Part shown: positions 631 to 38,253 of the stretch, one piece after another
Layout of the letters: each line of letters begins with the position of its first letter
Position numbering within the stretch: the first letter of the stretch is position 1
Assembly: GCA_947630585.1 (NCBI GenBank)
Contig: CANRIE010000002.1
Location: forward strand, 1 to 39,248
DNA: 39,248 nt
Reading direction: 5' to 3'
DNA from: an uncultured Bacilli bacterium
GTDB taxonomy: Bacteria; Bacillota_I; Bacilli_A; RF39; UBA660
Program-made: the position numbers and the translations under genes
Notes under the pieces: generated by a model
What the model was told of the DNA's origin: nothing
Database searches by the model: none
Seen by the model: only the letters and a program-made list of their open reading frames with translations

Positions 631-885
631 TTAAATTAAAATTAATTTAGTTCCATTTAATATTTTGGCTTCTTTTAAATTCAAATCAGCATTATAAAAT
701 TCACACGTGTCACTATTCATTAAAGCATGATTGTTACCAATTGGATAAGCTCCTTGAGATAACTCATGAGCCCCCTTGACAAGGTTAATAATTACATTCC
801 CAATCTTTTTATTAACAGGAATAAATAAATTATATTTAATATCAAGTTCAGGTACATAAACTTCAACTAAAACTTTATATTTCAT
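631..885 (-). CDS. esaB: YukD/EsaB-like ubiquitin-fold type VII secretion protein
   Basis: The 84 aa product has the size and pattern typical of the YukD/EsaB family (MKYKVLVEVYVPELDIKYNLFIPVNKKIGNVI...). Its start overlaps the essC stop by 4 nt (ATGA coupling). Confidence 0.7.
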   Translation of the reverse strand: MKYKVLVEVYVPELDIKYNLFIPVNKKIGNVIINLVKGAHELSQGAYPIGNNHALMNSDTCEFYNADLNLKEAKILNGTKLILI

Positions 886-5519: not shown

Positions 5520-5554
5520 ACAAATCCCTCTATTCTCTATATATAGAGTATATC

Positions 5555-5585
5555 AAAAAAAACTAACTTTAGCAATTAGTTTTTT
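5555..5585 (-). terminator. Hairpin with T-run between the 220-aa gene and essC (internal attenuator or terminator)
   Basis: On the minus strand, stem AAAACTAA / TTAGTTTT with a 9-nt loop is followed by a T-run. Confidence 0.4.
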
Positions 5586-5610
5586 AATTATTTCTATTTT
5601 TTCTATTTTT

Positions 5611-6273
5611 TTACCCTTTTTTTAATCCTTTGTTTAACGTATCTACCATTTGGCTTACATCGCTTGCCAATTGAGGGATACTTACCTTTAATTGATCAAC
5701 CAAACTATTTCTTTGAGTCAACTCGTTACTTGCTTCTGCATCATATTGATTAGCTGAATACATATCTCCCTCATTACGTTTAAGATTAGCATTATCGTGA
5801 TAGTTATTATAATTTGCATCATGAGCTTTAGCACTATCTATATCTGCTTTAATATTGCTTTTTTTAGTAACATAATCGCTATTTAATTCTGAAAATTTTT
5901 CATTTAACTCAGTAAAAACCTCCTTAGATTTTTCCTCAATTAAAGTTTTGTATTCGTTAAACGAAAGAACACATTTACTAATCATCTCAAACATTTGATT
6001 TAAATCATCCTTAGTATTTTTATATTGCTCAGGCCATTTAGAATAAATACTACTAATATTAGTTTTTATCATTTCAGTATCGGCTATAAATTTTTCTAAT
6101 GATTTTAATAAATTTGAATCTTCTAAACTAACATTTGAACTTTCATAATCACTAGCATTTTTATTTGCAACATTATCATCATAATTTCTAACTATTCTCT
6201 TATAAGAAGCATCAGCAGAATCAACACTATTTATATTAATACTATTATCAATAATATTTTGAACCATTACCAT
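5611..6273 (-). CDS. Hypothetical all-helical protein, T7SS-associated (possible substrate or accessory)
   Basis: 220 aa with a GGAGGG RBS 6 nt upstream of the ATG. It is Asn/Asp/Lys-rich with a coiled-coil-like sequence and no TM segment, and lies between the membrane component and essC. Confidence 0.5.
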   Translation of the reverse strand: MVMVQNIIDNSININSVDSADASYKRIVRNYDDNVANKNASDYESSNVSLEDSNLLKSLEKFIADTEMIKTNISSIYSKWPEQYKNTKDDLNQMFEMISKCVLSFNEYKTLIEEKSKEVFTELNEKFSELNSDYVTKKSNIKADIDSAKAHDANYNNYHDNANLKRNEGDMYSANQYDAEASNELTQRNSLVDQLKVSIPQLASDVSQMVDTLNKGLKKG

Positions 6274-6284
6274 AATTAGCCCTC

Positions 6285-7880
6285 CTATCCTACAGTCTCT
6301 ATTTTTTCTTCTGTATTAACTTTTAAATTAGCAGACAAATTTTTAACAAAATCTTCTAAGTTAACTAACTCAACTGAACTACTTAGTGGAACATAATAAT
6401 CTTTTCCATCTGATGAATCATTAATTAAAGCAAATTTAATGCCATTATCTTCAAGAGTTCCTTTAACAAAATAAACAGCATCTGGATTAGAATATTTTGT
6501 TAATACATCATCACCAATTTTAGTCGATGTCATTAGCATTGCTTCTTCATTCATCTTCAATACTTGTGAATAATTAGTAGTAAATGCCGTCGTATTATTA
6601 ATTTCAGCATAATAATATTTTTTTAAATCTTGATCATAAATTTTATAAAAATACTTATTATCGTATAAATAAATTCCTACAACATCATATTTTCCTGTTA
6701 AATTAGATTGTATAGTTGATGTTGCTCCTAATGTTTCGTATAATGGAGCTATAGCAGTAAATGTTAAACTTCCAACTACCCCTATTATACTTTCAGTAGG
6801 TTTTTCAGGTGGTTTAGAATTAGAACCGCCACCATCGCCAGGAATATTTATAAAACCAGAACTTCCACCAGAACCTCCACCTGGAGATGGTACCCTATCT
6901 GTCCCTTCTGCTGTTTTGATTGATTTTTCAATTTTTCCATATATGTCTGAAAGACAATCACTAAGATATTTTAAAACCTTATTAATCTTAGTTTTAAACA
7001 TAACAGAATCACTAAACTCTTCTGATATATCTTTTAATTTATTTTTAGTTTCATCATTTAATTCATCAAACAATAAATCAAACTTATATGGTGCAGCTTT
7101 TTCATCATATAAAATTTCAATATCATCTAAAATATTATATAATTTTCCATTCAATTCTTTTAACTCATCAGTATCAAATTTAGAAAATTTATCAGTTGCA
7201 TCTTTATCAACAAAACTTTCCTCAGGAACAACAAAGCCTGTAAATGTAAAAGGCAATTCATTAGTTGGTGGTTCTTCATTTAAAATTTCCGTTTCAGATG
7301 GCTCAGGTTCATCATTTATGTCAGAAATTGAATTTGCAGTCGGTTGGGCATTAAACATTGCATTCAACGTTTCAGGTGAAGTGCCAGGATTTTTTGCTGC
7401 ATAGGCAGTAATTGCATTATTATAAGCCTCTGTATCAGTACCAAACTCCTGAATTAAAAGTGCTGAAATAGGTAATCCCTGAGCTTCAGCAGCTGGTATA
7501 AGAGTATTTCTAACATAATCTTCATTACATTTTCCATCTAGAAAATCAACAACAAATTGCTTTTCAGCATCACTATAACTACCAGCTATTGATTGGGGCT
7601 GAGTTGGTGCTGAAGGAGTTTCTGGTGCCACTGGCTCAGAAGCAATTCTACTATTTAAATCTGCCTCTGACATATTGTGCCGTTCAGCATATAGATTTAT
7701 TGCTCTAGTATCCTGATTTGGCAAGTAACAGTTTTCACTTAAAAGTTCTTTGATTGATAATCCTTGTTCTTCACCAGATGGTATAATCATATCATTTACA
7801 TAAAGTTCATCATAACCCCATCCAAAAGCATTTTTAAAAAGTTCCCGTATAATTTCTTTATCTTCATCACTATATTGCAT
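6285..7880 (-). CDS. Single-pass membrane protein with a duplicated N-terminal module, T7SS-associated
   Basis: The start is taken at the ATG of MQYSDEDKE (AAAGGAG RBS); the ORF-track start is an upstream TTG. Two ~80-aa internal repeats are present (YSDEDKEII...IPSGEEQGLSIKELL and YSDAEKQFV...IPAAEAQGLPISALL). These are followed by a helical region, a Gly/Ser/Pro linker, a TM segment (IIGVVGSLTFTAIAPLY) and a beta-rich C-terminal domain. Confidence 0.6.
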   Translation of the reverse strand: MQYSDEDKEIIRELFKNAFGWGYDELYVNDMIIPSGEEQGLSIKELLSENCYLPNQDTRAINLYAERHNMSEADLNSRIASEPVAPETPSAPTQPQSIAGSYSDAEKQFVVDFLDGKCNEDYVRNTLIPAAEAQGLPISALLIQEFGTDTEAYNNAITAYAAKNPGTSPETLNAMFNAQPTANSISDINDEPEPSETEILNEEPPTNELPFTFTGFVVPEESFVDKDATDKFSKFDTDELKELNGKLYNILDDIEILYDEKAAPYKFDLLFDELNDETKNKLKDISEEFSDSVMFKTKINKVLKYLSDCLSDIYGKIEKSIKTAEGTDRVPSPGGGSGGSSGFINIPGDGGGSNSKPPEKPTESIIGVVGSLTFTAIAPLYETLGATSTIQSNLTGKYDVVGIYLYDNKYFYKIYDQDLKKYYYAEINNTTAFTTNYSQVLKMNEEAMLMTSTKIGDDVLTKYSNPDAVYFVKGTLEDNGIKFALINDSSDGKDYYVPLSSSVELVNLEDFVKNLSANLKVNTEEKIETVG

Positions 7881-7945
7881 ACTTTTTACTCCTTTCAAAA
7901 GTTCGCTAGTATCACACTAGCAATCCCTTTTTATATAATTTAGAA

Positions 7946-7970
7946 AAGACACATAAAGTGTATGTGTCTT
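7946..7970 (-). terminator. Intrinsic terminator or attenuator directly after the second WXG100-like gene
   Basis: A perfect 10-bp stem AAGACACATA / TATGTGTCTT with a 5-nt loop overlaps the stop codon. T-rich sequence follows on the minus strand. Confidence 0.5.
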
Positions 7971-8244
7971 AAGCTTGATCTGTTTCTTCAATAGCTGTTA
8001 CATACTTACCAACTTTATTTTGAATAGTCGCAACATTTTCAGCAATTGTTTTAGCTTTCTCGGATAATTCATTCATTGTTTCAGCTTGACGTTCTGAATT
8101 ACTACTTGCATATCCTTCTTGTTGATTTGAATATGTATTTTTTAAATTATTAAAACTTTCTTCAATTCTTTTAGCTACACTATCAATTCTTGCTAAATCT
8201 GATTTTAATTCGTCTGGACTATTAACATTAAAATCTTTACTCAT
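7969..8244 (-). CDS. WXG100-like small helical-hairpin protein (motif degenerate)
   Basis: 91 aa with two predicted helices around a central turn (NQQEGYASSN). An AGGAGAAATAAGAT RBS region precedes it, and it is adjacent to another Esx-like gene and essC. Confidence 0.65.
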   Translation of the reverse strand: MSKDFNVNSPDELKSDLARIDSVAKRIEESFNNLKNTYSNQQEGYASSNSERQAETMNELSEKAKTIAENVATIQNKVGKYVTAIEETDQA

Positions 8245-8260
8245 ATCTTATTTCTCCTTT

Positions 8261-8530
8261 CTATAATCCTACAGTTGCTTGATCAAAACCTTGTTGTTTA
8301 GCTTTTAAATTTTCGCGATTAGAATTTTGAGTTTCAATTACTTGTTGTAAACTTTTTTCCATTTCTTCTAACTTAGCATAAGCTTGATCTGCTTCTTCTC
8401 CAGATAAATTGCTTTGCATGCTTTGTTTGATTTTTTGAACTTCATCTAATTCAACTTGAAGATCATTAATTCCTTTTGAAATTTCATTAATTGTTCGTTG
8501 CATACTTTCAGAATTGTATCTTACACTCAT
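8261..8530 (-). CDS. WXG100/EsxA-like protein
   Basis: The start is taken at MSVRYNSESMQRT, with an AAAGGAGAAATAAT RBS just upstream; the ORF-track start is 11 codons further upstream. The 89 aa product has a helix-turn-helix hairpin pattern (turn LSGEEADQAY) and is the first gene of the T7SS operon. Confidence 0.7.
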   Translation of the reverse strand: MSVRYNSESMQRTINEISKGINDLQVELDEVQKIKQSMQSNLSGEEADQAYAKLEEMEKSLQQVIETQNSNRENLKAKQQGFDQATVGL

Positions 8531-8558
8531 ATTATTTCTCCTTTCTATTTTCATAATA

Positions 8559-8587
8559 ATCATACATTATTTTTTTTAAAAAGTAAA
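8559..8587 (-). promoter_or_regulatory. Putative sigma-A promoter of the esx/T7SS operon
   Basis: On the minus strand, TTTACT, a 17-nt spacer and TATGAT end about 28 nt upstream of the esx-like start codon. Confidence 0.4.
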
Positions 8588-10073: not shown

Positions 10074-11396
10074 TTATAATTCATAAGTTTTAATATCTGG
10101 TAATTCTCTTTCCTCAAATTGGACTTCGATATTACTATCTGGATTAAGTTTATAATCAGGTGTTAATTTAGTTTTATAAGGTAAAAGTCTTGGAAGTAAG
10201 ATAATCGCTTCAAATATTTTCATATCTTTTAATTCTTGAACACTAATTAACCGTTCATGTTTTTCAGTTTCGCCACACATTATACTAATTTCATCCATTG
10301 TAGAAAAGTCATTACTTCTTAAATAAATAATATTACTAAAACCTAATTTAAGAATATTTATATCATTATAGTTAGCTTTTAATTCCGTGAAACTTTTAAT
10401 AGCACATAAGAATCTTATTTTAATACTTCTTGCATAATTAAGAATATTAGAAAAATCTTTAATTGGAGCTATTTCATCAAAATTATCTAAGATAAAATTA
10501 ACCATATCTTTAACACCATAATATTTAATAGCCTCATATAATTGATTTAATAAAAGTGAGGTTAAAGAATTAGCATATAAACTATCTCCAACTATAACAA
10601 TGGCAAATTTTTCTTTTAGTATTTCTTCAAATTTAAATTCACTTTTAGAAAGTAATTTTGATAAATTAGTTCTAGATACATAAGCTTTAATTTTATAATT
10701 GAAAACGGATATGATACTATTTTTAACATCATCTGGTGCATTTAAAGTACCTGTTAATAGCATATAAATTGAATTAGTTTTACTTAAACTATTCATTAAT
10801 TTTAAACTTTTTTCATTATCACTTAAACTATTAACAATTAAATAAATACTATTTAAGTTAATCTCTTCTTCCTTAGCATTTTCGAATAAATATAAACTTA
10901 TTCCTTTAAAGAAATCAATTGTTACATTAGTCCAATAAGGATCTGATTCATTAGTATCCGAAAATAGATAGTAACCTATTTCATCAAGTAAGTTATAAGC
11001 TAAATCAAAGTTATCTTTTTTATAAAGTTCATATGGTAAACTTAATGGATTAAAGCAAGTACTTAATTTTGGATTTTCAAAATTAAAAATATAAGTTTTA
11101 TAGTTTGATGCTTCAAGTTCATTTTTAACCTTCGCATATTCTTCACCTTTCTTATCAATTATAACCATTGATTCTCCTGATTTAATTGTTGTTCTCATAA
11201 ATGGCAAGACAACACTTTGAGTTTTCCCACTTCCGGTTCCTGCTATAACAAGCGTGTGGCCATCCTTACCTTCGACATAAACTTTGTCCTTATCATAGAT
11301 AAGTGGAATTCCATTTTTAAAATTTCCTGATGTTAAATTATTTTCAGTTAAACTATCAAGTATTTCTCTGGTTGTTGCTAATCTAGCATATTTCAT
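10074..11396 (-). CDS. VirD4/TraG-family (type IV coupling protein-like) P-loop NTPase lacking an N-terminal TM anchor
   Basis: Walker A is VIAGTGSGKTQSVVLPF, with FNPL and DPYW motifs and a Walker-B-like FILDNFDEI. At 440 aa it is shorter than canonical coupling proteins. The weak hairpin TCCCT/AGGGA plus a T-run follows its stop. Confidence 0.65.
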   Translation of the reverse strand: MKYARLATTREILDSLTENNLTSGNFKNGIPLIYDKDKVYVEGKDGHTLVIAGTGSGKTQSVVLPFMRTTIKSGESMVIIDKKGEEYAKVKNELEASNYKTYIFNFENPKLSTCFNPLSLPYELYKKDNFDLAYNLLDEIGYYLFSDTNESDPYWTNVTIDFFKGISLYLFENAKEEEINLNSIYLIVNSLSDNEKSLKLMNSLSKTNSIYMLLTGTLNAPDDVKNSIISVFNYKIKAYVSRTNLSKLLSKSEFKFEEILKEKFAIVIVGDSLYANSLTSLLLNQLYEAIKYYGVKDMVNFILDNFDEIAPIKDFSNILNYARSIKIRFLCAIKSFTELKANYNDINILKLGFSNIIYLRSNDFSTMDEISIMCGETEKHERLISVQELKDMKIFEAIILLPRLLPYKTKLTPDYKLNPDSNIEVQFEERELPDIKTYEL

Positions 11397-15226: not shown

Positions 15227-17197
15227 TTATTCAGGCAAACCTATTGTGTAGGCAGTATCAGGACTCATCCCATCTCCCGAAGTTATTATTACTTCAGACT
15301 TTAGAAAAATAGTAGGACGTGTGGCTTGAAGATCATATGGTTGAACAGTAGTAAGACCACCATCATAATTTGCTCGAAATACTTGATAAGATGAGGTATT
15401 TGTAGTAGCTGGTGTTATTAACCATAAATTTTGTAGAGTATCATTACTACCACCTCCTAATATTGCTGAAAACATTTCTCCTACTCGAGGTAGTCCAACG
15501 AGTCCTGTCCATGTACTACTTGTTTTTGTACAATTTTTAGTTGTTTCGTTAATATCTTCTTCTAAACATATAGCTATTTTATAATTTCCTTTCGATGAAT
15601 ATGTACTTACAGTTCCTAAATAATATGTTCCTTCTGTTATATATTTTTTTAAATTATCAGTTAGCCACACGTTATTTAAATAATAACCCCACCAACTATC
15701 ATTACCATTCACTGAGTGTTCCCAACTTGTATCGTTTAAAATATATGAATAACTTTTTCTTAATATATTATTTTTTTCATCTCTTACATAATCTGTACTT
15801 ATTAATTTAGTTGTTCCATTATCTTCTACATTAATTATTCTATAAATTTTATCATCTACTTTGACATACTCCCCACTTAATCTTGTATTTACTTTTTCAT
15901 TCGCTTTTCCAATTTCTTTATCCACTTTTATACGATAAGGATTGTCCTTGCTTCCATCTCCAACGTCTGTAATCAAAACTTTAGATTTTAAATTAACAAC
16001 AGGACGCGGAGATGCACTAGAAAGAGAGCTTTGACAAGCATTATGATAACCATTAGTATCTACTATTTGAATCATATTTTTACTTTCACATGGAGTTATT
16101 AATTTCCAATAATAGCCTATATTTAAATATCCATTTTTATAAGCATCAGAAGTAGTGCCTAATTTTAGATAACTTTGATAATATTCATATGTATTTAATA
16201 AACCAACAGCTCCATTTACTATTTTTCCCGTAATTGGTGGTTTTTTTGGCGTAGTACCAAGATAAGATGAATTCCAACTAGCATCTTCTACAATTGTTTC
16301 TTCATAATTATATAAGGTACTCAAGAAATCTTCATTTAACCATTGATATATCCATGAACCTTCATAGGTTGAAGTTTCATTCCAGTGTAACGATCCCATT
16401 AAATCTTGAGTAATTATTTTTATTGTCTCATCAGGATTAATTGCTACTATTCTCCATAGTTTTCCGGAATACCAGATATAATTGAAATTAATTGTCTCAT
16501 TACTACCTGATAAATAAATTGTTCCATCCGTATCTGTTATAGAATTGCTATCATTTATCTTTTCTTTAATAGTTTTATATAATGATATACCAACAGATTT
16601 TTCTTCAAAATCTCCATTTACTGATACTTTGATACTTGCAAATACATCATTATTCCATACTTTACTTGAGTAATCAGCACCTTCTATATCTCCAATACTA
16701 ACTTCATCTGTTATCCACATATATAATCTATATTTAATACTTGTCTTAGTTTTAGTATTAGATGCAATTGTATTAACCCATATTTTTGTGTTATCTATCT
16801 CCTCATAAGTTCCATCTTCAATAACTGGAGTAACTTCATCACCTACTATTTCTTCAAGTCTAAATCTTAAGAATTTATCATCAAGTCTTGTTTTTCTTGT
16901 TTCATGTTCTTCTCCATGATTTATTAATATTTCATAATAAATATCTTTAGAATATGTATTCTTGCCTTCAATTGTAAATTCAAAATAAGTTTCAGGGTCA
17001 TAACTACTCCTTGGCATCATTAATTCAGCATTAATGACAGTATTACTTTCGGTATATTTCATAAATACATCGCCTGCAACTAAGACTTGATTTTCAGTTG
17101 TATTTACAAATATAAAATAAGCAAAAGCTCCACTTATTACCCCTACCATAACTAATAAGGTTATTAGTCCTACTATTAATATTTTTTTATTATTCAT
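15227..17197 (-). CDS. Paralog 1 of a secreted/surface protein family (TasA-like signal region plus two WLITP...RP lectin-like modules)
   Basis: 656 aa with a GGAG RBS. The N-terminus is a KK-hydrophobic stretch ending GAFAYF, followed by VLVAGDVFMKYTESN. There are two modules ending YYWKLITP...SPRPVVNLKS and NLWLITP...ATRPTIFLKS. The N-terminal third is similar to 36318-37958 and the remainder is similar to 24828-26777. Confidence 0.8.
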   Translation of the reverse strand: MNNKKILIVGLITLLVMVGVISGAFAYFIFVNTTENQVLVAGDVFMKYTESNTVINAELMMPRSSYDPETYFEFTIEGKNTYSKDIYYEILINHGEEHETRKTRLDDKFLRFRLEEIVGDEVTPVIEDGTYEEIDNTKIWVNTIASNTKTKTSIKYRLYMWITDEVSIGDIEGADYSSKVWNNDVFASIKVSVNGDFEEKSVGISLYKTIKEKINDSNSITDTDGTIYLSGSNETINFNYIWYSGKLWRIVAINPDETIKIITQDLMGSLHWNETSTYEGSWIYQWLNEDFLSTLYNYEETIVEDASWNSSYLGTTPKKPPITGKIVNGAVGLLNTYEYYQSYLKLGTTSDAYKNGYLNIGYYWKLITPCESKNMIQIVDTNGYHNACQSSLSSASPRPVVNLKSKVLITDVGDGSKDNPYRIKVDKEIGKANEKVNTRLSGEYVKVDDKIYRIINVEDNGTTKLISTDYVRDEKNNILRKSYSYILNDTSWEHSVNGNDSWWGYYLNNVWLTDNLKKYITEGTYYLGTVSTYSSKGNYKIAICLEEDINETTKNCTKTSSTWTGLVGLPRVGEMFSAILGGGSNDTLQNLWLITPATTNTSSYQVFRANYDGGLTTVQPYDLQATRPTIFLKSEVIITSGDGMSPDTAYTIGLPE

Positions 17198-17222
17198 TTT
17201 ATCATACTCCTATTCTATTTAT

Positions 17223-17251
17223 ATTTTAACATGTTCTGCCCCTAAATACAA
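17223..17251 (-). promoter_or_regulatory. Putative gene-proximal promoter of paralog 1
   Basis: On the minus strand, TTGTAT, a 17-nt spacer and TAAAAT with an upstream TGt (extended -10) lie between the terminator and the RBS. The same arrangement is conserved upstream of paralog 2. Confidence 0.4.
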
Positions 17252-17260
17252 ATCATATTT

Positions 17261-17306
17261 AAAAAGACATATAAAACCTAGTATTATTCTACCAGTTTTA
17301 TATGTC
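17261..17306 (-). terminator. Intrinsic terminator inside the upstream cassette of paralog 1
   Basis: A perfect 12-bp stem GACATATAAAAC / GTTTTATATGTC with a 17-nt loop is followed by TTTTT on the minus strand. The same stem sequence occurs at 26848-26891, and a related stem occurs at 38058-38112. Confidence 0.7.
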
Positions 17307-17339
17307 GAAATTCATCGTTTATTGTAATTTCATTTTGTA

Positions 17340-17414
17340 TTAATTTTGATACACCCCCCCCATTGTTATCAAATTGTCAACATATTTTCTTGATACATTA
17401 ATTAATTTTAACAT
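17340..17414 (-). CDS. Conserved 24-codon sORF containing a G8 tract (MLKLINVSRKYVDNLITMGGVYQN)
   Basis: A strong AAAGGTAGGTGA RBS lies 5 nt upstream of the ATG. The homopolymer at 17354-17361 encodes Gly-Gly. Paralogous sORFs with the same peptide core (YV-N/D-x-L-x-T-x-GG-x-Y) lie at 26919-26999 and 38138-38209. Confidence 0.6.
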   Translation of the reverse strand: MLKLINVSRKYVDNLITMGGVYQN

Positions 17415-17442
17415 GAGGGTCACCTACCTTTAATCTATTACT

Positions 17443-17471
17443 ATGATATCATGTTTAATTAGTTTTGACAA
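17443..17471 (-). promoter_or_regulatory. Putative promoter of the sORF cassette (paralog 1)
   Basis: On the minus strand: TTGTCA, a 17-nt spacer and TGaTATCAT (extended -10). The TGATAT(C/G)AT element is conserved in all three cassettes. Confidence 0.45.
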
Positions 17472-17504
17472 CTACTAATTTTTTATAATTTACATTATTA
17501 TAAT

Positions 17505-18023
17505 TTAGATAATTTCTTTTTTAATCTTATATTTCTTTTTTAATATTTCTCTAGTTCTTGCAAATATTTCATCTTTATATTCTTTATATTTATCTCCAAT
17601 TTCAAAAGCTGATTTAAATATATCATCAACTGATGTATTTGCATTTTCTAAAATATAATTTTGAAAACATTCAAATCCAAATATATTAGCAATTCCTTCA
17701 ATTATAGCATCTTTTTTATAATTTACATCACCTTGCATAGCCATATATATCTTTTTAACTTTAATATAATCAGCATCACTTAACAAAATATAATTTTTCT
17801 TATTAGGATCCAAATTAATATATTCTTCTAAATAATCATCTCCATCAGGAAAGCATTTAACTATTTTTTCAAACTTTCCATGTTTTAATGGAATAAATAA
17901 AAGTTCTACTCCCCAATATTCAAAGTTTAGTTTTGTTGCTAAACCTTGTAAAGTCTCATTTCTTTTCCAAAGTTTATTTTTTGGAATTTCAAAAAGCTCA
18001 TTGCCATTTGTAACTACTATCAT
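17505..18023 (-). CDS. Hypothetical cytoplasmic protein (172 aa)
   Basis: A long ORF in an AT-rich context with a GGGAGG-like RBS (TTGGGAGGTTTTT). I could not recognise a family. Confidence 0.5.
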   Translation of the reverse strand: MIVVTNGNELFEIPKNKLWKRNETLQGLATKLNFEYWGVELLFIPLKHGKFEKIVKCFPDGDDYLEEYINLDPNKKNYILLSDADYIKVKKIYMAMQGDVNYKKDAIIEGIANIFGFECFQNYILENANTSVDDIFKSAFEIGDKYKEYKDEIFARTREILKKKYKIKKEII

Positions 18024-22413: not shown

Positions 22414-22908
22414 TTAATTATTATTTATTTTTTTAACAGTTAAGGTTGCATTAACTCCACTACTTAGATTTACTCCTAATGAGACTAGTGCCGAAAGTGC
22501 CATATCAATTACATTGCCACTACTTAAATTAACAATTGTACTACCACTATAAACGGAACTGGTTCCAACTGATAAGACTCTGGAAATGACAGTTGAGGGG
22601 ATATTCGTTCCGTTATTTCTAACTGCAAGAGTTAACGTAGTTCCAACTGATGCTGAGACATTTAAAAAGTAATTTATTTCATAAACACCTGTTTGGTTTA
22701 TCGTGATACTATTGTTAGTTGTATAGCTAGTGTTCGAGCCTGGCATCGTTGTTGGAAGAGGGATTTGACTTTGGGTTAGTATTCCTAGGTTAAGAGTACT
22801 AGCTGTATTGTTGAAACGTCCTCCATAGGCTTGAAGTCCCCCAGCGGGGCCCGCAGGGCCAGTTGGCCCTTGGGGAATAACAAAATTTAGAGTATACCCT
22901 GAATTCAT
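22414..22908 (-). CDS. BclA-like protein: short collagen-like repeat plus C1q/TNF-like beta-sandwich C-terminal domain
   Basis: It has an AGGAG RBS. The N-terminus is [19 protein letters not shown] (GXY repeats), followed by a ~135-aa Ser/Thr/Asn/Val-rich domain with the BclA C-terminal pattern (GVYEINYFLNVS...LAVRNNGTNI...LSSGNVIDMAL...ATLTVKKI). Confidence 0.7.
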   Translation of the reverse strand: MNSGYTLNFVIPQGPTGPAGPAGGLQAYGGRFNNTASTLNLGILTQSQIPLPTTMPGSNTSYTTNNSITINQTGVYEINYFLNVSASVGTTLTLAVRNNGTNIPSTVISRVLSVGTSSVYSGSTIVNLSSGNVIDMALSALVSLGVNLSSGVNATLTVKKINNN

Positions 22909-24827: not shown

Positions 24828-26777
24828 CTAATTTTTTTTATTATTTTCACTTGGTAACCCAATTGTATAGGCACTTTCAGGACTCATTCCATCTCCTCCA
24901 GTTATTTTAACTTCTGGTTTTAGATAAATGGATGGCCGCGTGCCATGTTGATCCGAAGAAGGGCCGGTGCTGCCGAGACTTCCATTGTTAAAGACAAAGG
25001 ACATGTTCGAGCCACTATATGGTGTTATTAACCATATATCTGCTAAGGTATCATTATAACCTTTACCTAGCATTGCCGAAAACATTTCTCCCATTCTTGG
25101 TAATCCTACTAAACCTCGCCAAGTAGTTGTTGTTTTTTCACAACTACTTGCTGGTTCTGTTGTATTGCTTGCTCTACATATTGAATTTTTAAAACTCGTA
25201 ACCTCTCCTACTTGTCCCAAATAATAAGTCCCATCTGTTATATATTTTTGAAGTTCAGTTGTTAACCATGTATTATTCAAGTAATAACCCCAATGCCACA
25301 CGTTGCCGTTTGATACTACTGTTCCATAATTTCTTATTGAATTAGAACTGGAAAAATTTTTAGTTAAGACTGTATCACCATCTCTTACATAATCGACACT
25401 TGTTAATTTGGTTATGTTATTACCCTCATCATCTTTATCTATTCCTACTATTCTATATATTTTATTATCTACTTCGACATACTCACCACTTAATCTCGTA
25501 TTGATTAAATCTCCATTATTTCCTGATTCTTTATCATCATTTATTCGATATGGATTAGTCTCACTTCCATCTCCACCTGCTACTATTCCGATATTTGATT
25601 TTAGATTTATAGATGGACGAACACCCTTTGCTCCCGAAAAGGGATTGTTATTGCTGAGATTGCCATATTCGCTGACGTACCATACATTCGAACTAACTGG
25701 TGTTATTAACCACCAATTATATCCATTTTTCAAATATCCTCTTGAAGAAATTGTATTTTTATAACTTTGATATTGTTCATACGCATTTAATAATCCTACA
25801 TCTCCAGTTACCATTGTTGTTTCAGGTATTTTCGTAGTATAACTTGTAGTTTCTGTTGCATTCCAAGAGGCATCTTTGACTATTATATTCTCATAATTAT
25901 ATAAGGTATCCTTAAAATCTTCATTTAACCATTGATATATCCAGGAAGCTTTATAGTTATCTTTATCTTTATTTTTATATATTGTATCTTCTCCCCAAGA
26001 TATTGCTGTTATTTCATCTTGGGTTATTAATTTCATGGAACCATCTGAATTAATTGCTACTATTCTCCATAGTTTTCCGGAATACCAGACATAATTGAAA
26101 TTAACACATTCGTTATCTCCTGAAAAATAGATTATATCATCACTTGGATCACTTGGGGTTCCATTATCATCTGTTAAAGTTGGAGTACATGTATCAGTTG
26201 TATGACTTGCAATTGCTTCTATTAAAGTATCTTTTAAAGGCATAGTCTTATCTAAATTTTGATTACCTTCTACTACTACTTTAGCTTTAAACTCTTTATT
26301 CATATAAGTATTATCGGCAGTTTCCATAAGCCATACTTTAACATGATATTCACTTGTTTCTCCTACTTTTAATTTACCTTCACTTTCTATATATTTATCT
26401 TCACTTAATATTTTAGGTTCAGAATAACCTTTATTATCTTTATTTACTATATATTTTATAACTGTTTTAAATTCAGGATCAGTAGATAACTCTTCAATAT
26501 AAACATTATAATTAGCAACTAAGTTACCTGTATTTTTTACTTGGAATACTAATTCTTGTTCTAAACTCTCACCTTCTTCATCAGTCATAGGATACATATT
26601 AGATAGATTTAAAAACTGAGTTTTCGAGTCCTCAAATGTAACTTCTAATGTACCTACATTAATTACATAATTATTAGTAGATTCTTTAGTATACATTAAA
26701 TAAGCATAACTAGAGCCTAGTATTAATACTAAACTTAATGTTATTATCATTATTAATAAATTTCTTTTATTATTCAT
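24828..26777 (-). CDS. Paralog 2 of the secreted/surface protein family (TasA/camelysin-like N-terminal domain plus two WLITP...RP modules)
   Basis: 649 aa. The N-terminus GSSYAYLMYTKESTNNYVINVGTLEVTF...LNLSNMYP...VFQVKNTGNL parallels the TasA/CalY pattern. The C-terminal two thirds are collinear with paralog 1, including a 56-nt block with a single mismatch (26049-26104 versus 16436-16491). Confidence 0.8.
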   Translation of the reverse strand: MNNKRNLLIMIITLSLVLILGSSYAYLMYTKESTNNYVINVGTLEVTFEDSKTQFLNLSNMYPMTDEEGESLEQELVFQVKNTGNLVANYNVYIEELSTDPEFKTVIKYIVNKDNKGYSEPKILSEDKYIESEGKLKVGETSEYHVKVWLMETADNTYMNKEFKAKVVVEGNQNLDKTMPLKDTLIEAIASHTTDTCTPTLTDDNGTPSDPSDDIIYFSGDNECVNFNYVWYSGKLWRIVAINSDGSMKLITQDEITAISWGEDTIYKNKDKDNYKASWIYQWLNEDFKDTLYNYENIIVKDASWNATETTSYTTKIPETTMVTGDVGLLNAYEQYQSYKNTISSRGYLKNGYNWWLITPVSSNVWYVSEYGNLSNNNPFSGAKGVRPSINLKSNIGIVAGGDGSETNPYRINDDKESGNNGDLINTRLSGEYVEVDNKIYRIVGIDKDDEGNNITKLTSVDYVRDGDTVLTKNFSSSNSIRNYGTVVSNGNVWHWGYYLNNTWLTTELQKYITDGTYYLGQVGEVTSFKNSICRASNTTEPASSCEKTTTTWRGLVGLPRMGEMFSAMLGKGYNDTLADIWLITPYSGSNMSFVFNNGSLGSTGPSSDQHGTRPSIYLKPEVKITGGDGMSPESAYTIGLPSENNKKN

Positions 26778-26804
26778 ATTCTTTTACTCCTCTATTCTAT
26801 TTAT

Positions 26805-26833
26805 ATTTTAACATATTATGTCCCGTTTTACAA
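26805..26833 (-). promoter_or_regulatory. Putative gene-proximal promoter of paralog 2
   Basis: On the minus strand, TTGTAA, a 17-nt spacer and TAAAAT with TGt (extended -10), matching the position in paralog 1. Confidence 0.4.
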
Positions 26834-26842
26834 ATCAAAATT

Positions 26843-26891
26843 AAAAAGACATATAAAACCTAGTAGTATTATTCTACCAGTTTTATATGTC
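26843..26891 (-). terminator. Intrinsic terminator inside the upstream cassette of paralog 2
   Basis: The stem GACATATAAAAC / GTTTTATATGTC is identical to the 17266-17306 stem. TTTTT follows on the minus strand. Confidence 0.7.
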
Positions 26892-26918
26892 GAAAATTAT
26901 CATTAATTGTAATTTTAA

Positions 26919-26999
26919 TTAGATGATTTTTTGATACACCCCCCCCGTAGTTATCAAATTGTTAACATATTTATTTGATACAAAAATCATTTTTAACAT
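26919..26999 (-). CDS. Conserved 26-codon sORF containing a G8 tract (MLKMIFVSNKYVNNLITTGGVYQKII)
   Basis: The AAAGGTAGGTGA RBS lies 5 nt upstream of the ATG. The homopolymer at 26939-26946 encodes Gly-Gly. The peptide is collinear with the sORFs at 17340-17414 and 38138-38209. Confidence 0.6.
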   Translation of the reverse strand: MLKMIFVSNKYVNNLITTGGVYQKII

Positions 27000-27027
27000 G
27001 AGGGTCACCTACCTTTAATCTATTAAC

Positions 27028-27036
27028 ATGATATCA
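27028..27036 (-). promoter_or_regulatory. Extended -10 element TGATATCAT of the sORF cassette (paralog 2)
   Basis: This is the same TGATATCAT element, at the same distance from the sORF RBS, as in paralog 1. The -35 is poor (TTTCCA). Confidence 0.35.
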
Positions 27037-34283: not shown

Positions 34284-34388
34284 CGGGCGAACGGCATTAT
34301 TATTGTTCACGTTGTTCGAACTTACGTTCCCAGTCGTATTCCAATTAGCAACATTATTAGAGTTGTTAGAGGACGGAGACAAAAGCCA
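34284..34388 (-). repeat. DGR template repeat (TR)
   Basis: This 105 nt starts 12 nt after the RT stop and aligns without gaps to 36399-36503. The coding-strand sense reads WLLSPSSNNSNNVANWNTTGNVSSNNVNNNNAVRP, dominated by AAC/AAT codons. Confidence 0.9.
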
Positions 34389-34400
34389 CAACTCGCCAAT

Positions 34401-35507
34401 TTAATTTATCCTACCCCAAAAATATTTATTAACAATATTTTTAACTTTAATATTATTTGTATATTTAAAACTATAAAGATAAGTATTAATACTTGAAAAA
34501 CATTTTTCAAAACTAATATAACCTTTATTATATAAATACTTAACTTCTTTAACTCTTCTTTTTATTTTCTTTAAAGTATCTTTTTTTATTTTTATAATTG
34601 TTTTATTATTTTTAATAATAAAACGATATCCTAAAAAACAAAATCCTTCTTTACTACTTACTATTTTTGTTTTCTTTTTATTTATTTCTAATTTATAATC
34701 ATTATTTAATATCTTTTCAATTTTATTTAAACATTCTTCTAAATATTTCTTATTAGGATGCATGATTATAAGGTCATCCATGTACACTATTGTGTATTTA
34801 AGATGTAAATCATGAACAATATAATGAATTAATCTTGATAAATAAAATATTGATAGAAATTGACTAGTCATAGCTCCAAGTCCTAACCCTTTACCATCTT
34901 TATATCTTGGTAAATCATTTAATTTATCTTTATCATAAGGTCTTTTCTTAATCATTTCAACAATCCTAGAATCAATATCAGAATTTATATAACTACTATT
35001 AGTACTATCAATTATTCTACTAATTAATGTATATTCATCATTATCTAATTTGCATTTAATCAAACTCTTTAATACATCATGGTCTATATTATAAAAATAC
35101 TTTTTAATATCAATTTTTAATATATAAAAATTACCATATTTCTTACATTTTTCTAAATACTTTTTAACTAACTTAATTCCATAATCTACACCATATCCAC
35201 TTCTAGTTGCAACTATTCTATTATCTAAATATTTATCTAATTTTGGAATTAAAACATATCTTGCTAAATAATGATTAATAACTTTATCTTTAATTCTTAA
35301 AGACATTACTATTCTATACTTAGGTTCTCTAATTATAAATATATTATATTTACTAGGATAATAACTCATATTAGTAAGTTCATTATAGATATTTATGATA
35401 TTTTGCATTTTATTTCTTTCAAATACATAAACTTTTTTCTTATTCTTAGTATTCTTTCTAATTTCTAAATCATAAATATCTATTAAATCTTTAATATTAA
35501 CTTTCAT
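34401..35507 (-). CDS. DGR-type reverse transcriptase
   Basis: 368 aa with the catalytic motif VYMDDLIIMH and GLGAMTSQFLS (the [I/L]GxxxSQ signature characteristic of DGR RTs). No maturase/endonuclease domain or intron RNA is present. It overlaps the Avd-like gene by 11 nt, and TR lies immediately downstream. Confidence 0.9.
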   Translation of the reverse strand: MKVNIKDLIDIYDLEIRKNTKNKKKVYVFERNKMQNIINIYNELTNMSYYPSKYNIFIIREPKYRIVMSLRIKDKVINHYLARYVLIPKLDKYLDNRIVATRSGYGVDYGIKLVKKYLEKCKKYGNFYILKIDIKKYFYNIDHDVLKSLIKCKLDNDEYTLISRIIDSTNSSYINSDIDSRIVEMIKKRPYDKDKLNDLPRYKDGKGLGLGAMTSQFLSIFYLSRLIHYIVHDLHLKYTIVYMDDLIIMHPNKKYLEECLNKIEKILNNDYKLEINKKKTKIVSSKEGFCFLGYRFIIKNNKTIIKIKKDTLKKIKRRVKEVKYLYNKGYISFEKCFSSINTYLYSFKYTNNIKVKNIVNKYFWGRIN

Positions 35508-35835
35508 CTTGAATCCATTTAAACAACATCTTATTAATACTAAGTAATCTATTACTTAATTTAATAGATTGTTTTTCACTTATTATCCTCTTCTTAAAAC
35601 TTTGCTCTATATAAAAGTCAATTAAATTAACTTTCATAATAGTTTTAATTTGAATATCTTTTCTTTTATCTATATTAGTATAATTAGCAGTATAAACTAG
35701 TTCTAATAATTCATAACTATCATTAACTAATCTATTTCTAAGTTCAAAGTATTTTCTAGGATAATTAATTAAATAATCATCAAGTATCATAATAAATTCT
35801 TTAATATATTTAGCAATAACAAACTTATCATTCAT
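35497..35835 (-). CDS. avd: Avd-like (accessory variability determinant) four-helix-bundle protein
   Basis: 112 aa, basic and predicted all-helical. The YPRKYFELRNRL and EKQSIKLSNRLLSINKMLFKWI pattern resembles the Avd / 23S-rRNA-IVS protein family. It is translationally coupled to the RT. Confidence 0.75.
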   Translation of the reverse strand: MNDKFVIAKYIKEFIMILDDYLINYPRKYFELRNRLVNDSYELLELVYTANYTNIDKRKDIQIKTIMKVNLIDFYIEQSFKKRIISEKQSIKLSNRLLSINKMLFKWIQDES

Positions 35836-36187
35836 TTACAATACTAGATATAGTTTCTAGTATTCTATCTAATTTTTCAGGACTTACTTTTTTAACCTTT
35901 TCAACTAAATCTTTATAATTAGTATCTTTCTCATATTTTTCTTTTCCTAATCTTACAAATTTTAAATATTTATTTAAGTTCTTAAAGTTATTATTGTTAT
36001 CTTCTCCTATAACTTCATAACTAATCTTATTTTCTTCTAATTTATTTATTACTTTATTAAGTGCTGATTTAGGAAACCCTACTTTATTATTTTTAATTTG
36101 ATAGTTAAAAAGATAATAAAGAATATAACAATCATCATCATAAGTACTATAAAAAGTACCACTTCTTCTTATCTTGATAACATTCAT
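35828..36187 (-). CDS. Small MutS-domain-I-like protein (MSL-type DGR accessory candidate)
   Basis: 119 aa. RRSGTFYSTYDDDCYILYYLFNYQI...KVGFPKSALNKVINKLEENKISYEVI parallels the MutS mismatch-binding domain core (GDFYE-F--DA...G-P...L...KL...GY-V-I). It overlaps the avd start by 8 nt. Confidence 0.5.
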   Translation of the reverse strand: MNVIKIRRSGTFYSTYDDDCYILYYLFNYQIKNNKVGFPKSALNKVINKLEENKISYEVIGEDNNNNFKNLNKYLKFVRLGKEKYEKDTNYKDLVEKVKKVSPEKLDRILETISSIVNE

Positions 36188-36287
36188 ATAACTATAAAAC
36201 TATTCCTTTCTTTTATTAATTTATATAGTTAAACTTTCAATCAAAACCATTTCTACTAATGGTTAAACCCCTTGATATATAAGGCGG

Positions 36288-36315
36288 TTTCCGGACGTCT
36301 TTGCCGTCCAGGAAA
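36288..36315 (-). other. GC-rich hairpin 3 nt downstream of the DGR target stop codon
   Basis: Stem TTTCCGGACG / CGTCC(A)GGAAA has one bulged A and a 7-nt loop, and is unusually GC-rich for this genome. No T-run follows. Confidence 0.5.
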
Positions 36316-36317
36316 CT

Positions 36318-37958
36318 CTATGCTATTTCAGGGTAATATGGAGTATTCAAACTTCCATCTCCATCTGTTATTTTTATATCGGATATTAGATTAACGGACG
36401 GGCGAACGGCAATATTAGAGCTCACGTTGAGCGAACTTACGCTCTCAGTCGTATCCCAATTAGCAACATCAGTAGAGTCGTGAGAGGACGGAGACAAAAG
36501 CCATCCATAGTTACTTGGCATACTATTCATCCAACTTGCTGATTTTATACTACTAAAATCTTTTAATTGCTTATCCCAATTATCATTTTCACTGCTTACT
36601 GAAAAGCCATAATCGCTTGGATACATTAAGGCAATTTTTCCTTCCCAGGTTGCTTGATTTTCTTTCCACACTTTACATCCATTTTCACTTTCAGATTTTC
36701 CAGTATTTTCAACGCAACTTGCAACATCTCTTTCATTCGCATAGGCTTCTTTTGGATTATCAATTATTCCTGTATAACTTTCAGGATCATAAGTTACTGT
36801 TCCCAAATAATATTTGGTGTCTTTTATCATATCTTTGGCATTTTTACTTAAGTAACTCATGTACCCATCACTTGGTTGTTTTGTATATTTATCAATTCCA
36901 GCATTTAACCAATATTGGAGTCCTGCTGTTGCCCAGTCATTATTGTATGTTCCACTTGTTTTTTTATTCCAATAAGCATAGTTCCCACTTGTATATTGAA
37001 TATTATATTCAGTTCCACTTGCAGAAAAAGTTGCAGGGAACATATCTCTTGTTAAAACTTTATTATTAACTATTTTTAAGTGTTCTTCTCCACTTTCATC
37101 TTTGAATACTCCGATTATTCTCCATATTTCACAATTAGAACTTGCAGTTTCATAAGTTGTATTATCACTACAATTAAAATAAATATAATTCTTTATTCCA
37201 TCATTTCCAGAATAACGATATTCTCTTACCTCATCATCTTTTGAAGTTGTTGGAGTATTATCAGATTTTACTCCAATTACTCCTCCTGCTTGGCCTATAG
37301 TATCTTTAACAACATCAGTTCCAATTTCACTTTTAATTTCTTTCTCATCAAAGTCACCATTTACGGATACTTTGATACTTGCAAAAACATTATCATTCCA
37401 TGTTTCCATATCATAATCAGCAAGACTTGTATTTCCTATATTAGTCTTAGGGGATATCCACATATATAATTTATACGTTATTTCTACATTATCTGTATTT
37501 GCATCTATTGTATTTATCCATATTGCTTTTCCATCTTTTATATTACTATAACTTGCATTATCTAATACTGTTTTATCAACTCCATCTTTGGTTTCTACTA
37601 ACCTAAACATTAATAAGTTATCTTTTATTCTTTCTGTTCTTTCTGTATTTTCATCTCCTGTTGGTTCTTCTCCCCAATTTAAAACTATTTCATACCAAAT
37701 TGGTTTTGAATATTTATTCCTTCCTTCGATTGTAAACTCGAAATAATCATCATCACCTGGTTCAGCTTTAGGTAAAGCATTTGTAATTGATAGTTCATTA
37801 GATTCCGTATATTTCATGAATACATCTCCGCTTATCAAAACTTGATTTTGGAGCGTATTTGAATATGTCCATATTGCAAATGTTACTCCGAATATTAGAA
37901 CTAAACAAATCGCTGCTATAACTCCAACTATAACTCCCTTTTTACGTTTATTTTCCAT
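36318..37958 (-). CDS. Paralog 3 of the secreted/surface protein family; DGR target (variable protein)
   Basis: 546 aa with a GGAGGAAATAG RBS. The signal-like N-terminus and N-terminal domain are closely similar to paralog 1 (NQVLISGDVFMKYTESN, YFEFTIEGRNKYSK, ASIKVSVNGDFDEK). The C-terminal module GWLLSPSSHDSTDVANWDTTESVSSLNVSSNIAVRPSVNL carries the VR. Confidence 0.85.
   Translation of the reverse strand: MENKRKKGVIVGVIAAICLVLIFGVTFAIWTYSNTLQNQVLISGDVFMKYTESNELSITNALPKAEPGDDDYFEFTIEGRNKYSKPIWYEIVLNWGEEPTGDENTERTERIKDNLLMFRLVETKDGVDKTVLDNASYSNIKDGKAIWINTIDANTDNVEITYKLYMWISPKTNIGNTSLADYDMETWNDNVFASIKVSVNGDFDEKEIKSEIGTDVVKDTIGQAGGVIGVKSDNTPTTSKDDEVREYRYSGNDGIKNYIYFNCSDNTTYETASSNCEIWRIIGVFKDESGEEHLKIVNNKVLTRDMFPATFSASGTEYNIQYTSGNYAYWNKKTSGTYNNDWATAGLQYWLNAGIDKYTKQPSDGYMSYLSKNAKDMIKDTKYYLGTVTYDPESYTGIIDNPKEAYANERDVASCVENTGKSESENGCKVWKENQATWEGKIALMYPSDYGFSVSSENDNWDKQLKDFSSIKSASWMNSMPSNYGWLLSPSSHDSTDVANWDTTESVSSLNVSSNIAVRPSVNLISDIKITDGDGSLNTPYYPEIA
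36399..36503 (-). repeat. DGR variable repeat (VR)
   Basis: The 105 nt show 13 mismatches to TR. Twelve are at positions that are A in the TR coding strand (30 A in total). The VR ends 26 codons before the stop. The A-free GC-rich 3' end GCCGTTCGCCCG is identical to TR. Confidence 0.9.
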
Positions 37959-38005
37959 TTCTATTTCCTCCTTCTGGGCTTACGCCCCTCTACTATTACA
38001 TTTTC

Positions 38006-38034
38006 ATTATAAAATATTTTTAGGATTTTAGCAA
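38006..38034 (-). promoter_or_regulatory. Putative gene-proximal promoter of paralog 3
   Basis: On the minus strand, TTGCTA, a 17-nt spacer and TATAAT lie between the cassette terminator and the RBS. A small GGGC-GTAA-GCCC hairpin follows. Confidence 0.45.
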
Positions 38035-38057
38035 GTCTTTTTTTAAATCCTCATGTG

Positions 38058-38112
38058 AAAAAAGACATATTTAAAATAAGTATTATCAATACCATATTTT
38101 ATATGTCTTTTT
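38058..38112 (-). terminator. Intrinsic terminator inside the upstream cassette of paralog 3
   Basis: Stem AAAAAGACATAT / ATATGTCTTTTT has additional inner pairing AAAATA/TATTTT, and a T-run follows on the minus strand. It shares the GACATAT core with the other two cassettes. Confidence 0.65.
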
Positions 38113-38137
38113 GTATCTTTTACTATACTTTGAATAA

Positions 38138-38209
38138 CTAAAAGTGGTAGCCCCCCCCCAATGTCGACAAGTAGTTAACATACATATTTATCATATTTAC
38201 TATATTCAT
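38138..38209 (-). CDS. Conserved 23-codon sORF containing a G9 tract (MNIVNMINMYVNYLSTLGGGYHF)
   Basis: The AAAGGAAGTG RBS lies 6 nt upstream of the ATG. The homopolymer at 38151-38159 encodes Gly-Gly-Gly. The nucleotide sequence has diverged from the other two cassettes, but the peptide core YVN-L-T-GG-Y and the reading frame are kept. Confidence 0.55.
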   Translation of the reverse strand: MNIVNMINMYVNYLSTLGGGYHF

Positions 38210-38244
38210 AAACTACACTTCCTTTATTCTTAAAATACAACTTA

Positions 38245-38253
38245 ATCATATCA
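38245..38253 (-). promoter_or_regulatory. Extended -10 element TGATATGAT of the sORF cassette (paralog 3)
   Basis: It occupies the same position relative to the sORF RBS as TGATATCAT in the other two cassettes. Confidence 0.35.

Follow-up and report, generated by a model that had tools for sequence, protein, structure and literature searches.

Three paralogous genes for predicted surface proteins of 656, 649 and 546 amino acids (aa), all with an N-terminal signal anchor, lie on the minus strand of the 39-kb stretch of DNA analysed here (contig CANRIE010000002.1 of an uncultured Bacilli bacterium, positions 1 to 39,248), which is termed the window throughout. Each gene is preceded, on the same strand, by a compact leader cassette, and these three cassettes are the subject of the present work. 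Their parts follow one another in a fixed order, namely an extended -10 promoter (P1), a Shine-Dalgarno site, a small open reading frame (sORF) of 23-26 codons that carries a run of guanines, an intrinsic terminator about 45 nucleotides (nt) downstream, a second promoter-like motif (P2-like) and the main gene (Table 1). A sequence-only reading made beforehand had located the promoter, ribosome-binding site (RBS), 24-codon reading frame, G8 run, 12-bp terminator and second promoter-like element of cassette 1, all of which were recovered at the places given. It had also extended the architecture to 26778-27036 and 37959-38253, where alignment returned the same order of parts, cassette 3 being far more diverged than cassettes 1 and 2. 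The arrangement is real and non-random, and each cassette is probably, at a rough probability of 0.6, a cis-acting, phase-variable transcription attenuator.

In the proposed mechanism, P1 would start a short leader transcript whose sORF would be translated. With the runs as they now stand (G8, G8 and G9), the sORF stop lies 28-34 nt before the stem, and the hairpin would form and end most P1 transcripts, which corresponds to a low or off state. Slipped-strand mispairing at replication would alter the run by one base and bring the ribosomes into a frame that is open to the terminator; a ribosome following close behind RNA polymerase would then cover the 5' arm, the hairpin would not form, and transcription would proceed into the TasA-like/DUF6273 gene, giving a high or on state. 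The paralogs would switch independently, which would lead to mixed surface repertoires within a clonal population. The hypermutability of the run, the coupling between translation and termination and the direction of the effect are the presumed elements of this scheme.

Table 1. Coordinates of the leader cassettes, their downstream genes and the associated retroelement in the window
Feature	Position	Strand	Details
Cassette 1, promoter P1	17443..17471	-	TTGTCA 17471-17466, 17-nt spacer, TGaTATCAT 17451-17443 (extended -10 TGATATCAT)
Cassette 1, Shine-Dalgarno AAAGGTAGGTGA	17420..17431	-	
Cassette 1, leader sORF, short frame, MLKLINVSRKYVDNLITMGGVYQN	17340..17414	-	24 codons + stop; stop ends 34 nt before stem
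Cassette 1, G8 tract inside sORF	17354..17361	-	codons ATG GGG GGG GTG
Cassette 1, intrinsic terminator	17261..17306	-	stem 17306-17266, T5 17265-17261; -18.5 kcal/mol, z = -7.2 vs shuffles
Cassette 1, P2-like motif TGTTAAAAT	17223..17231	-	between terminator and gene
Paralog 1	15227..17197	-	656 aa; signal anchor, TasA-like N-terminal domain, DUF6273 region
Cassette 2, P1 extended -10 TGATATCAT	27028..27036	-	
Cassette 2, leader sORF, MLKMIFVSNKYVNNLITTGGVYQKII	26919..26999	-	26 codons + stop; RBS 27016-27005; stop ends 28 nt before stem
Cassette 2, G8 tract	26939..26946	-	
Cassette 2, terminator	26843..26891	-	stem 26891-26848, T5 26847-26843; -19.9 kcal/mol, z = -6.8
Cassette 2, P2-like motif TGTTAAAAT	26805..26813	-	
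Paralog 2	24828..26777	-	649 aa; DUF6273
Cassette 3, P1 extended -10 TGATATGAT	38245..38253	-	
Cassette 3, leader sORF, MNIVNMINMYVNYLSTLGGGYHF	38138..38209	-	23 codons + stop; RBS 38225-38216; stop ends 31 nt before stem
Cassette 3, G9 tract	38151..38159	-	
Cassette 3, terminator	38058..38107	-	stem 38107-38064, T6 38063-38058; -12.8 kcal/mol, z = -3.8
Cassette 3, P2-like motif TGCTAAAAT	38025..38033	-	
Paralog 3	36318..37958	-	546 aa; N-terminal domain as in paralog 1, different C-terminal part with the variable region (36399-36503) of a diversity-generating retroelement
Diversity-generating retroelement of paralog 3	34284..37958	-	119-aa reading frame 36187-35828; bAvd-like gene 35835-35497; reverse transcriptase 35507-34401

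The observations behind this scheme concern the anatomy of the cassettes, its conservation, the geometry of the reading frames, and short and long alleles that exist in nature. Three readings had been listed without ranking in the sequence-only account, namely a phase-variable antitermination switch, a glycine or rare-codon sensor and an independent peptide gene. The comparison with relatives best supports the first, and the other two are less likely; the switch is favoured because a terminator-reaching frame is found in every cassette, both states are natural, one-G differences separate them, and the terminator is the sole barrier in many relatives.

The stop of each of the three frames following the run was computed for 32 cassettes, and in all 32 at least one frame is open to within 1 nt of the terminator stem, into the stem or past it. 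The remaining frames stop early, at +3 to +33, except in cassette 3 and in the homologous locus L041, which have two long frames each. The short state, with a stop 28-62 nt before the stem, is seen in 22 cassettes, including the window copies, while seven cassettes stand naturally in the long state (L006, L035, L037, L040a, L040b, L041 and L117). When one G is added, the frame of cassette 1 ends at TAA 17286-17284 in the terminator loop, in exact agreement with the frame that had been written out earlier, and that of cassette 2 ends at TAA 26871-26869, again in the loop. In cassette 3 it is the loss of one G that places the stop in the loop (+65), and the gain of one G carries the frame past the terminator (+108).

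Natural alleles that differ by a single G accompany this geometry. Near-identical cassettes were found in L001 (G8, short) and L035 (G9, long), and likewise in L118 and L095 (both G8, short) as against L117 (G9, long). A looser case is provided by L037 and L040a (G9, long) versus L007 (G8, short), which have in common the motif ...gtcaaccat immediately 5' of the run and of which the wider flanks are only about 60-70% identical. L023 carries G9 and yet is short, through a change of the flanking ccat to cct.

The runs themselves are conspicuous. The three cassette runs (G8, G8 and G9) are the only ones of at least seven guanines in the window, where seven G7 matches were observed against 0.34 expected by shuffling and none of 100 shuffles reached seven, which bears out the earlier statement that such runs are improbable by chance. 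The expectation that GGG would be a rare codon proved correct as well, for it is the rarest glycine codon of the window genes (32 of 452, or 7%). Across about 480 kb of homologous loci, no run of at least seven cytosines was met with. Cassette runs in the relatives range from G8 to G11. A sequencing artefact was considered as the source of the poly-G and rejected, since the runs lie inside contigs, within conserved flanks and in independent assemblies. A promoter-spacer switch was rejected on spacing, the run being located about 85 nt downstream of the P1 -10 element and about 120 nt upstream of the P2-like motif; the distance from a palindrome-borne TTGACA or TTGTCA to a TATA after the run gives spacers of 21 or 13 nt.

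Two further loci show homopolymers in other positions. The near-identical sORFs of L086 (reverse complement, about 840-852) and L095 (8760-8770) have A8 and A7, respectively, just 5' of the palindrome, by which the start codon of L086 is put out of frame; this difference reflects either another slippery run or a mistake in assembly. At L102 (4171-4215), G10-TATA-CCCC-T7 is read, in which the G run forms the 5' arm of a small hairpin followed by a T run, a short distance before a gene whose product has a type IV prepilin-like N-terminus (MKKNGFTLVELLAVIVIL).

In a set of 80 homologous loci, runs of G7-G11 were located 120-230 nt upstream of the gene and always on the strand of the gene. Of 57 assessable loci, all from metagenome-assembled genomes (MAGs) of uncultured gut Bacilli, 17 carry the full cassette, one has the run inside the 5' end of the gene, two retain a decayed or G-less cassette, and 37 show an ordinary promoter region. 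One rabbit-gut MAG alone contains at least eight cassettes. Scanning metagenome DNA with the cassette pattern returned 39 loci, of which only about nine were cassette-like and the rest chance matches in G+C-rich or eukaryote-like DNA; a scan of viral contigs with the pattern gave no match.

About 29 distinct cassettes could be compared part by part. An extended -10 element (TGnTAnnnT) stands 28-35 nt before the sORF ATG in 28 of 29, a Shine-Dalgarno-like site precedes the sORF in every cassette with an assigned start, the short sORF has 19-28 codons, and a hairpin with a T run follows 43-65 nt after the G run. A terminator is present in nearly all relatives, and although the terminators of different clades are unrelated in sequence, they always fold. 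RNAalifold on a MAFFT alignment of 23 cassettes yielded no consensus structure, as the terminators of different clades cannot be aligned, and single-sequence folds were used instead. In the window, a consensus terminator scan did not flag the three hairpins that folding does support, because their stems are A+U-rich; the base of the cassette 1 hairpin is a perfect 12-bp helix followed by T5.

Several features around these parts were recorded in passing. A recurrent AATGTAAAT(T) motif, which may be a regulator site or an UP element, occurs 40-60 nt upstream of the P1 -10 in the window (about 17490-17500) and in L001, L006, L007, L020, L035, L038, L111 and L118. A C-rich spacer (CCCTC and variants) separates the Shine-Dalgarno site from the sORF AUG in the window (17415-17421 and 27000-27006) and in L001, L006, L012, L020, L035, L038 and L123; it is absent from other clades and unusual at 27% G+C. 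In the minimum-free-energy folds of cassettes 1 and 2, this spacer pairs with the G run, and a long-range helix closes the whole sORF. A classical in-ORF phase-variation layout, with the G run inside the 5' coding region of the family gene, was seen at L065 (2783-2793) and L089 (G12; reverse complement, 7126-7154), the latter retaining the palindrome GTTAACAAATTGTTAAC directly before the run. The contigs of L007, L117, L102, L005 and L040 end within or beside a cassette, which suggests that repeated cassettes and homopolymers break the short-read assemblies of these genomes.

The terminator stands directly in the path of transcription in many relatives. In ten cassettes (L007, L012, L016, L020, L023, L038, L040a, L041, L043 and L123), only 24-39 nt, RBS included, separate the T run from the ATG of the gene; no promoter fits such a gap, and therefore transcripts of the gene have to begin at P1 and pass the terminator. 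Variants of the cassette obey the same switch logic. The terminator of L040b is replaced by an RBS-sequestering hairpin, and its long sORF stops 4 nt before the main ATG, while L081 (about 880-1200) and L015 (about 2700-3000) hold a G-less cassette with a 38-codon sORF that runs into the terminator 5' arm ("locked long") and has an A7 run inside.

These short gaps also bear on the unlikely possibility that P1, sORF and terminator make up an independent small gene for a trans-acting small protein or RNA, with the main gene expressed from P2 and the terminator merely ending the small transcript and upstream read-through. The unit does have its own promoter, RBS and terminator, and a P2-like extended -10 element is conserved after the terminator in the window copies and several relatives; about ten cassettes, however, have no room for a promoter between terminator and gene. 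The peptide gives little encouragement to the idea either. Among the differing sORF codons of 12 cassette pairs, 11 are synonymous and 66 non-synonymous, with 22% synonymous expected by chance, and the sequence differs widely between clades. The absence of purifying selection on the peptide indicates that translation matters and not the product, and a trans-acting peptide is therefore unlikely. Nor was an RNA family recognised: Rfam 15, at gathering and permissive thresholds, matched no family, only two tRNAs reached the gathering score in the window, and within 17150-17520 no match was better than E = 5. An independent gene would moreover leave unexplained why one frame is always open up to the terminator and why a G run is kept instead of ordinary GGA or GGT glycine codons.

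Recoding at the RNA level, which we regard as quite unlikely, would assign the slippage to RNA polymerase or to the ribosome, so that the G run gives a fixed or tunable read-through in every cell without heritable switching, and the conserved palindrome 5' of the run would act as a pause site or slippage-stimulating hairpin. The 18 nt before the run (GTTRACAAnTTGTCAAC) are indeed conserved at the nucleotide level, beyond any coding need, and include the palindrome GTTGACAAATTGTCAAC, which ends 2-3 nt before the run and folds significantly in about one third of the distinct cassettes (-7 to -11 kcal/mol, p < 0.01). In formal terms G GGG GGG qualifies as a slippery heptamer, and Penno et al. 2015 are said to have described stem-loop-stimulated transcriptional slippage beside a homopolymeric stretch in an insertion sequence element. 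Against such recoding, the three window copies form no more than a weak, non-significant hairpin (-0.6 to -3.4 kcal/mol), and the Hadza-gut clade lacks the hairpin and has a direct repeat in place of the 18-nt stretch; a universal RNA hairpin was accordingly rejected. Besides, the shift needed to enter the long frame is +1 in some cassettes and -1 in others, and run-length differences between near-identical cassettes exist already in the DNA.

It is very improbable that the cassette is a leader-peptide attenuator that senses glycine or a rare codon, in which the speed of the ribosome over the rare GGG would report charged tRNA-Gly and set termination. GGG is the rarest glycine codon, as noted above, and any frame across the run contains two or three of them. 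Sensing of this kind is disfavoured by the lack of an alternative antiterminator structure: in cassettes 1 and 3 nothing pairs with the 5' arm until the 3' arm has been transcribed, and in cassette 2 only a weak structure does so. A ribosome halted at the run, or one that leaves at the short stop, would be at least 28 nt from the stem, too far to matter. The downstream genes encode DUF6273/TasA-like surface proteins and have no part in glycine metabolism, and neither the variation of the run from 8 to 11 nor flank changes that restore the short frame, as in L023, would be needed for sensing.

Least credible is the view that nothing special is present, in which the hairpin would simply end the transcript of the preceding gene, and the sORF and G run would be functionless leftovers of a duplicated intergenic region. 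The upstream genes are co-oriented and without another obvious terminator, and the frame statistics are only moderate. In many genomes, however, the cassette accompanies this family of downstream genes although the genes upstream of it are unrelated. Its promoter, RBS, run and terminator persist where spacer identity has fallen below 65%, and it contains G runs of a length (at least seven) that is otherwise nearly absent from these genomes.

Several points weigh against the phase-variable attenuator. Two thirds of the homologous genes have no cassette. When the spacer was permuted with the terminator kept and the probability that any frame reaches the stem was taken as the statistic, P ranged from 0.16 to 0.94 per cluster, and the product over 10 spacer clusters, which share ancestry, was about 1e-3; the frame geometry thus supports the switch in a moderate and not an overwhelming way. 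Hypermutation of the run is deduced from differences between paralogs and strains, and one and the same Hadza-gut locus had G10 in all three samples, in a search that merges similar places. Tight coupling of transcription and translation is not a general rule among Firmicutes. The attenuator leaves the conserved 18-nt stretch 5' of the run unexplained; this stretch might have a part in setting the slippage rate, in pausing RNA polymerase or in protein binding. The P2-like motif was mentioned in the sequence-only reading, where its weight against off/on switching was not considered. Gaps of 63-117 nt between terminator and gene are found in the window copies (68-105 nt), L001, L035, L017, L063 and L081, and these longer gaps hold a conserved promoter-like motif, either TGyTAAAAT or, in L001 and L035, TTGAAA-17-TATAAT; the P2-like motif of the window cassettes is also kept in L017, L063 and L081 and is absent from the ten or so related cassettes without room for it. 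If P2 is active, the gene would be expressed regardless, and the switch in the window may be low/high and not off/on; for the window itself this is the principal reservation.

A broader proposal, which we put forward tentatively and consider unlikely, takes the palindrome and G run as a core at which DNA polymerase, RNA polymerase or both would slip in a programmed manner, at a rate set by the adjacent hairpin or operator, so that the cassettes would form a modular, family-wide stochastic device acting together with a diversity-generating retroelement (DGR) on paralog 3. Contigs from termite and rodent guts (L089 and L087) have the same core in front of or within unrelated genes, which would make it a portable switch if this proposal were true; both the production of each TasA-like adhesin and its binding target would then be variable in the organism.

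The genes behind the cassettes fit a role at the cell surface. A DUF6273 match was obtained for paralogs 1 and 2, and DUF6273 has been tied in the published literature to targets of DGRs. Sequence searches with the paralogs against NCBIfam and the PDB gave no match, and only the fold search was informative. The AlphaFold model of paralog 1 (mean predicted local distance difference test score, pLDDT, 81.6) places its N-terminal domain close to the TasA fibre structure 8aur (probability 1.00, TM 0.44 on the target) and also shows resemblance to chaperone-usher pilin domains (FimG, PapG and CS20). The signal anchors end in ...AYF or ...AIW, resembling SipW-type signal peptides. The paralogs may be subunits of fibres or tip adhesins. 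The family is large, with more than 1,700 matches, and individual genomes of uncultured gut Bacilli, obtained from rabbit, Hadza human and ruminant samples, carry it in multiple copies.

A DGR targets paralog 3, so that one gene carries both this system and the G9 cassette. The DGR template repeat (34284-34388, 105 nt) is 88% identical to 36399-36503 at the 3' end of paralog 3, and of the 13 mismatches, 12 coincide with adenines of the template. The window is chromosomal, the paralogs being situated among genes for tRNA synthetases, RelA/SpoT, MreD, SufB and DNA polymerase III delta. Elsewhere in the window, an FtsK/SpoIIIE-family ATPase (1545 aa) near a WXG100 protein (882-8563 and 10074-11396) resembles a type VII secretion locus; a homologue of a type IV secretion system coupling protein and a protein with a BclA C-terminal domain (22414-22908) were also noted.

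No published description of the poly-G leader-ORF cassette was found in a literature search, and the element had not been recognised beforehand as a described one. That view has to be amended, for the same logic has been demonstrated for the non-homologous pil1/pil3 loci of Streptococcus gallolyticus, where a leader-peptide gene with internal GCAGA repeats precedes a terminator (Danne et al. 2014, PMC3894217). A leader peptide that ends at least 28 nt before the hairpin leads to low expression there, whereas an out-of-frame repeat change puts the stop within or after the hairpin and leads to high expression; genetic evidence demonstrated that the effect depends on both leader translation and the terminator (PMC3894217). 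The window cassettes share with pil1/pil3 a promoter, a translated leader ORF with a simple-sequence repeat, a terminator some tens of nt further on and a gene for a surface structure. In both systems, the short frame stops at least 28 nt before the hairpin, the other frame stops within or after it, and the regulated products are surface fibres or adhesins, predicted ones in the present case. Of the hallmarks of a pil1-type switch, the promoter with its leader ORF, the repeat in the leader, the intrinsic terminator and the short and long frames are all present in the window, while freedom from a promoter between terminator and gene is seen in about ten relatives and the window gap holds TGyTAAAAT.

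The differences are equally clear. The S. gallolyticus loci have 13-23 GCAGA units, whereas the run here is a G8-G11 homopolymer, and repeats do not encode the leader peptide. The sequences are not homologous, and TasA-like/DUF6273 proteins with SipW-type signal anchors take the place of sortase pili. In contrast with pil1/pil3, the cassette is multiplied here over many paralogs per genome, many copies have a second promoter-like motif after the terminator, and the system is known from sequence alone.

If the attenuator model holds, a single earlier case of phase variation through a leader reading frame with a terminator would be known, and the cassettes would be the first on a homopolymer and the first as a module repeated across a large surface-protein family, here of gut commensals (rabbit, Hadza human and ruminant MAGs), and the S. 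gallolyticus mechanism would turn out to be a general design and not a one-off. On and off states would become predictable from metagenomes by the run length modulo 3 relative to the terminator position. Homopolymer-length errors in assemblies of these organisms, the contigs of which often break at cassettes, would alter the predicted states. The TasA-like/DUF6273 proteins would then be variable structures facing the host or phages, one of them being diversified by a DGR as well.

Other known systems resemble the cassettes in part. Promoter-spacer homopolymer switches, such as Neisseria porA/opc and Treponema tpr, carry the run between or next to the -35 and -10 elements, unlike the window run, which is neither between nor beside them. 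Surface-protein phase variation of Clostridioides difficile cwpV proceeds by site-specific DNA inversion; a Firmicute surface protein is again concerned and the formation of an intrinsic terminator in the 5' leader is again decisive, but repeat slippage and translation are proposed here in place of inversion. E. coli pyrBI is a ribosome-mediated attenuator without an antiterminator. Like pyrBI and the trp/his leaders, the cassette would rely on a ribosome close behind RNA polymerase that physically blocks the terminator hairpin; it differs from them in that the signal would be genetic, residing in the reading frame, and not a nucleotide or a charged tRNA, and in that alternative RNA structures are missing. 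As for the trp/his type in particular, no mutually exclusive antiterminator/terminator pair was detected, and the downstream genes do not belong to the metabolism of the sensed amino acid. The poly-G contingency loci of Campylobacter, Neisseria and Haemophilus share with the cassettes a G run in an A+T-rich genome, surface-exposed proteins and an expected stochastic, reversible switching. In those loci the run is placed in the coding region or promoter spacer, whereas in the window a distinct sORF ahead of the gene accommodates it, and read-through of a terminator is the output that would be expected.

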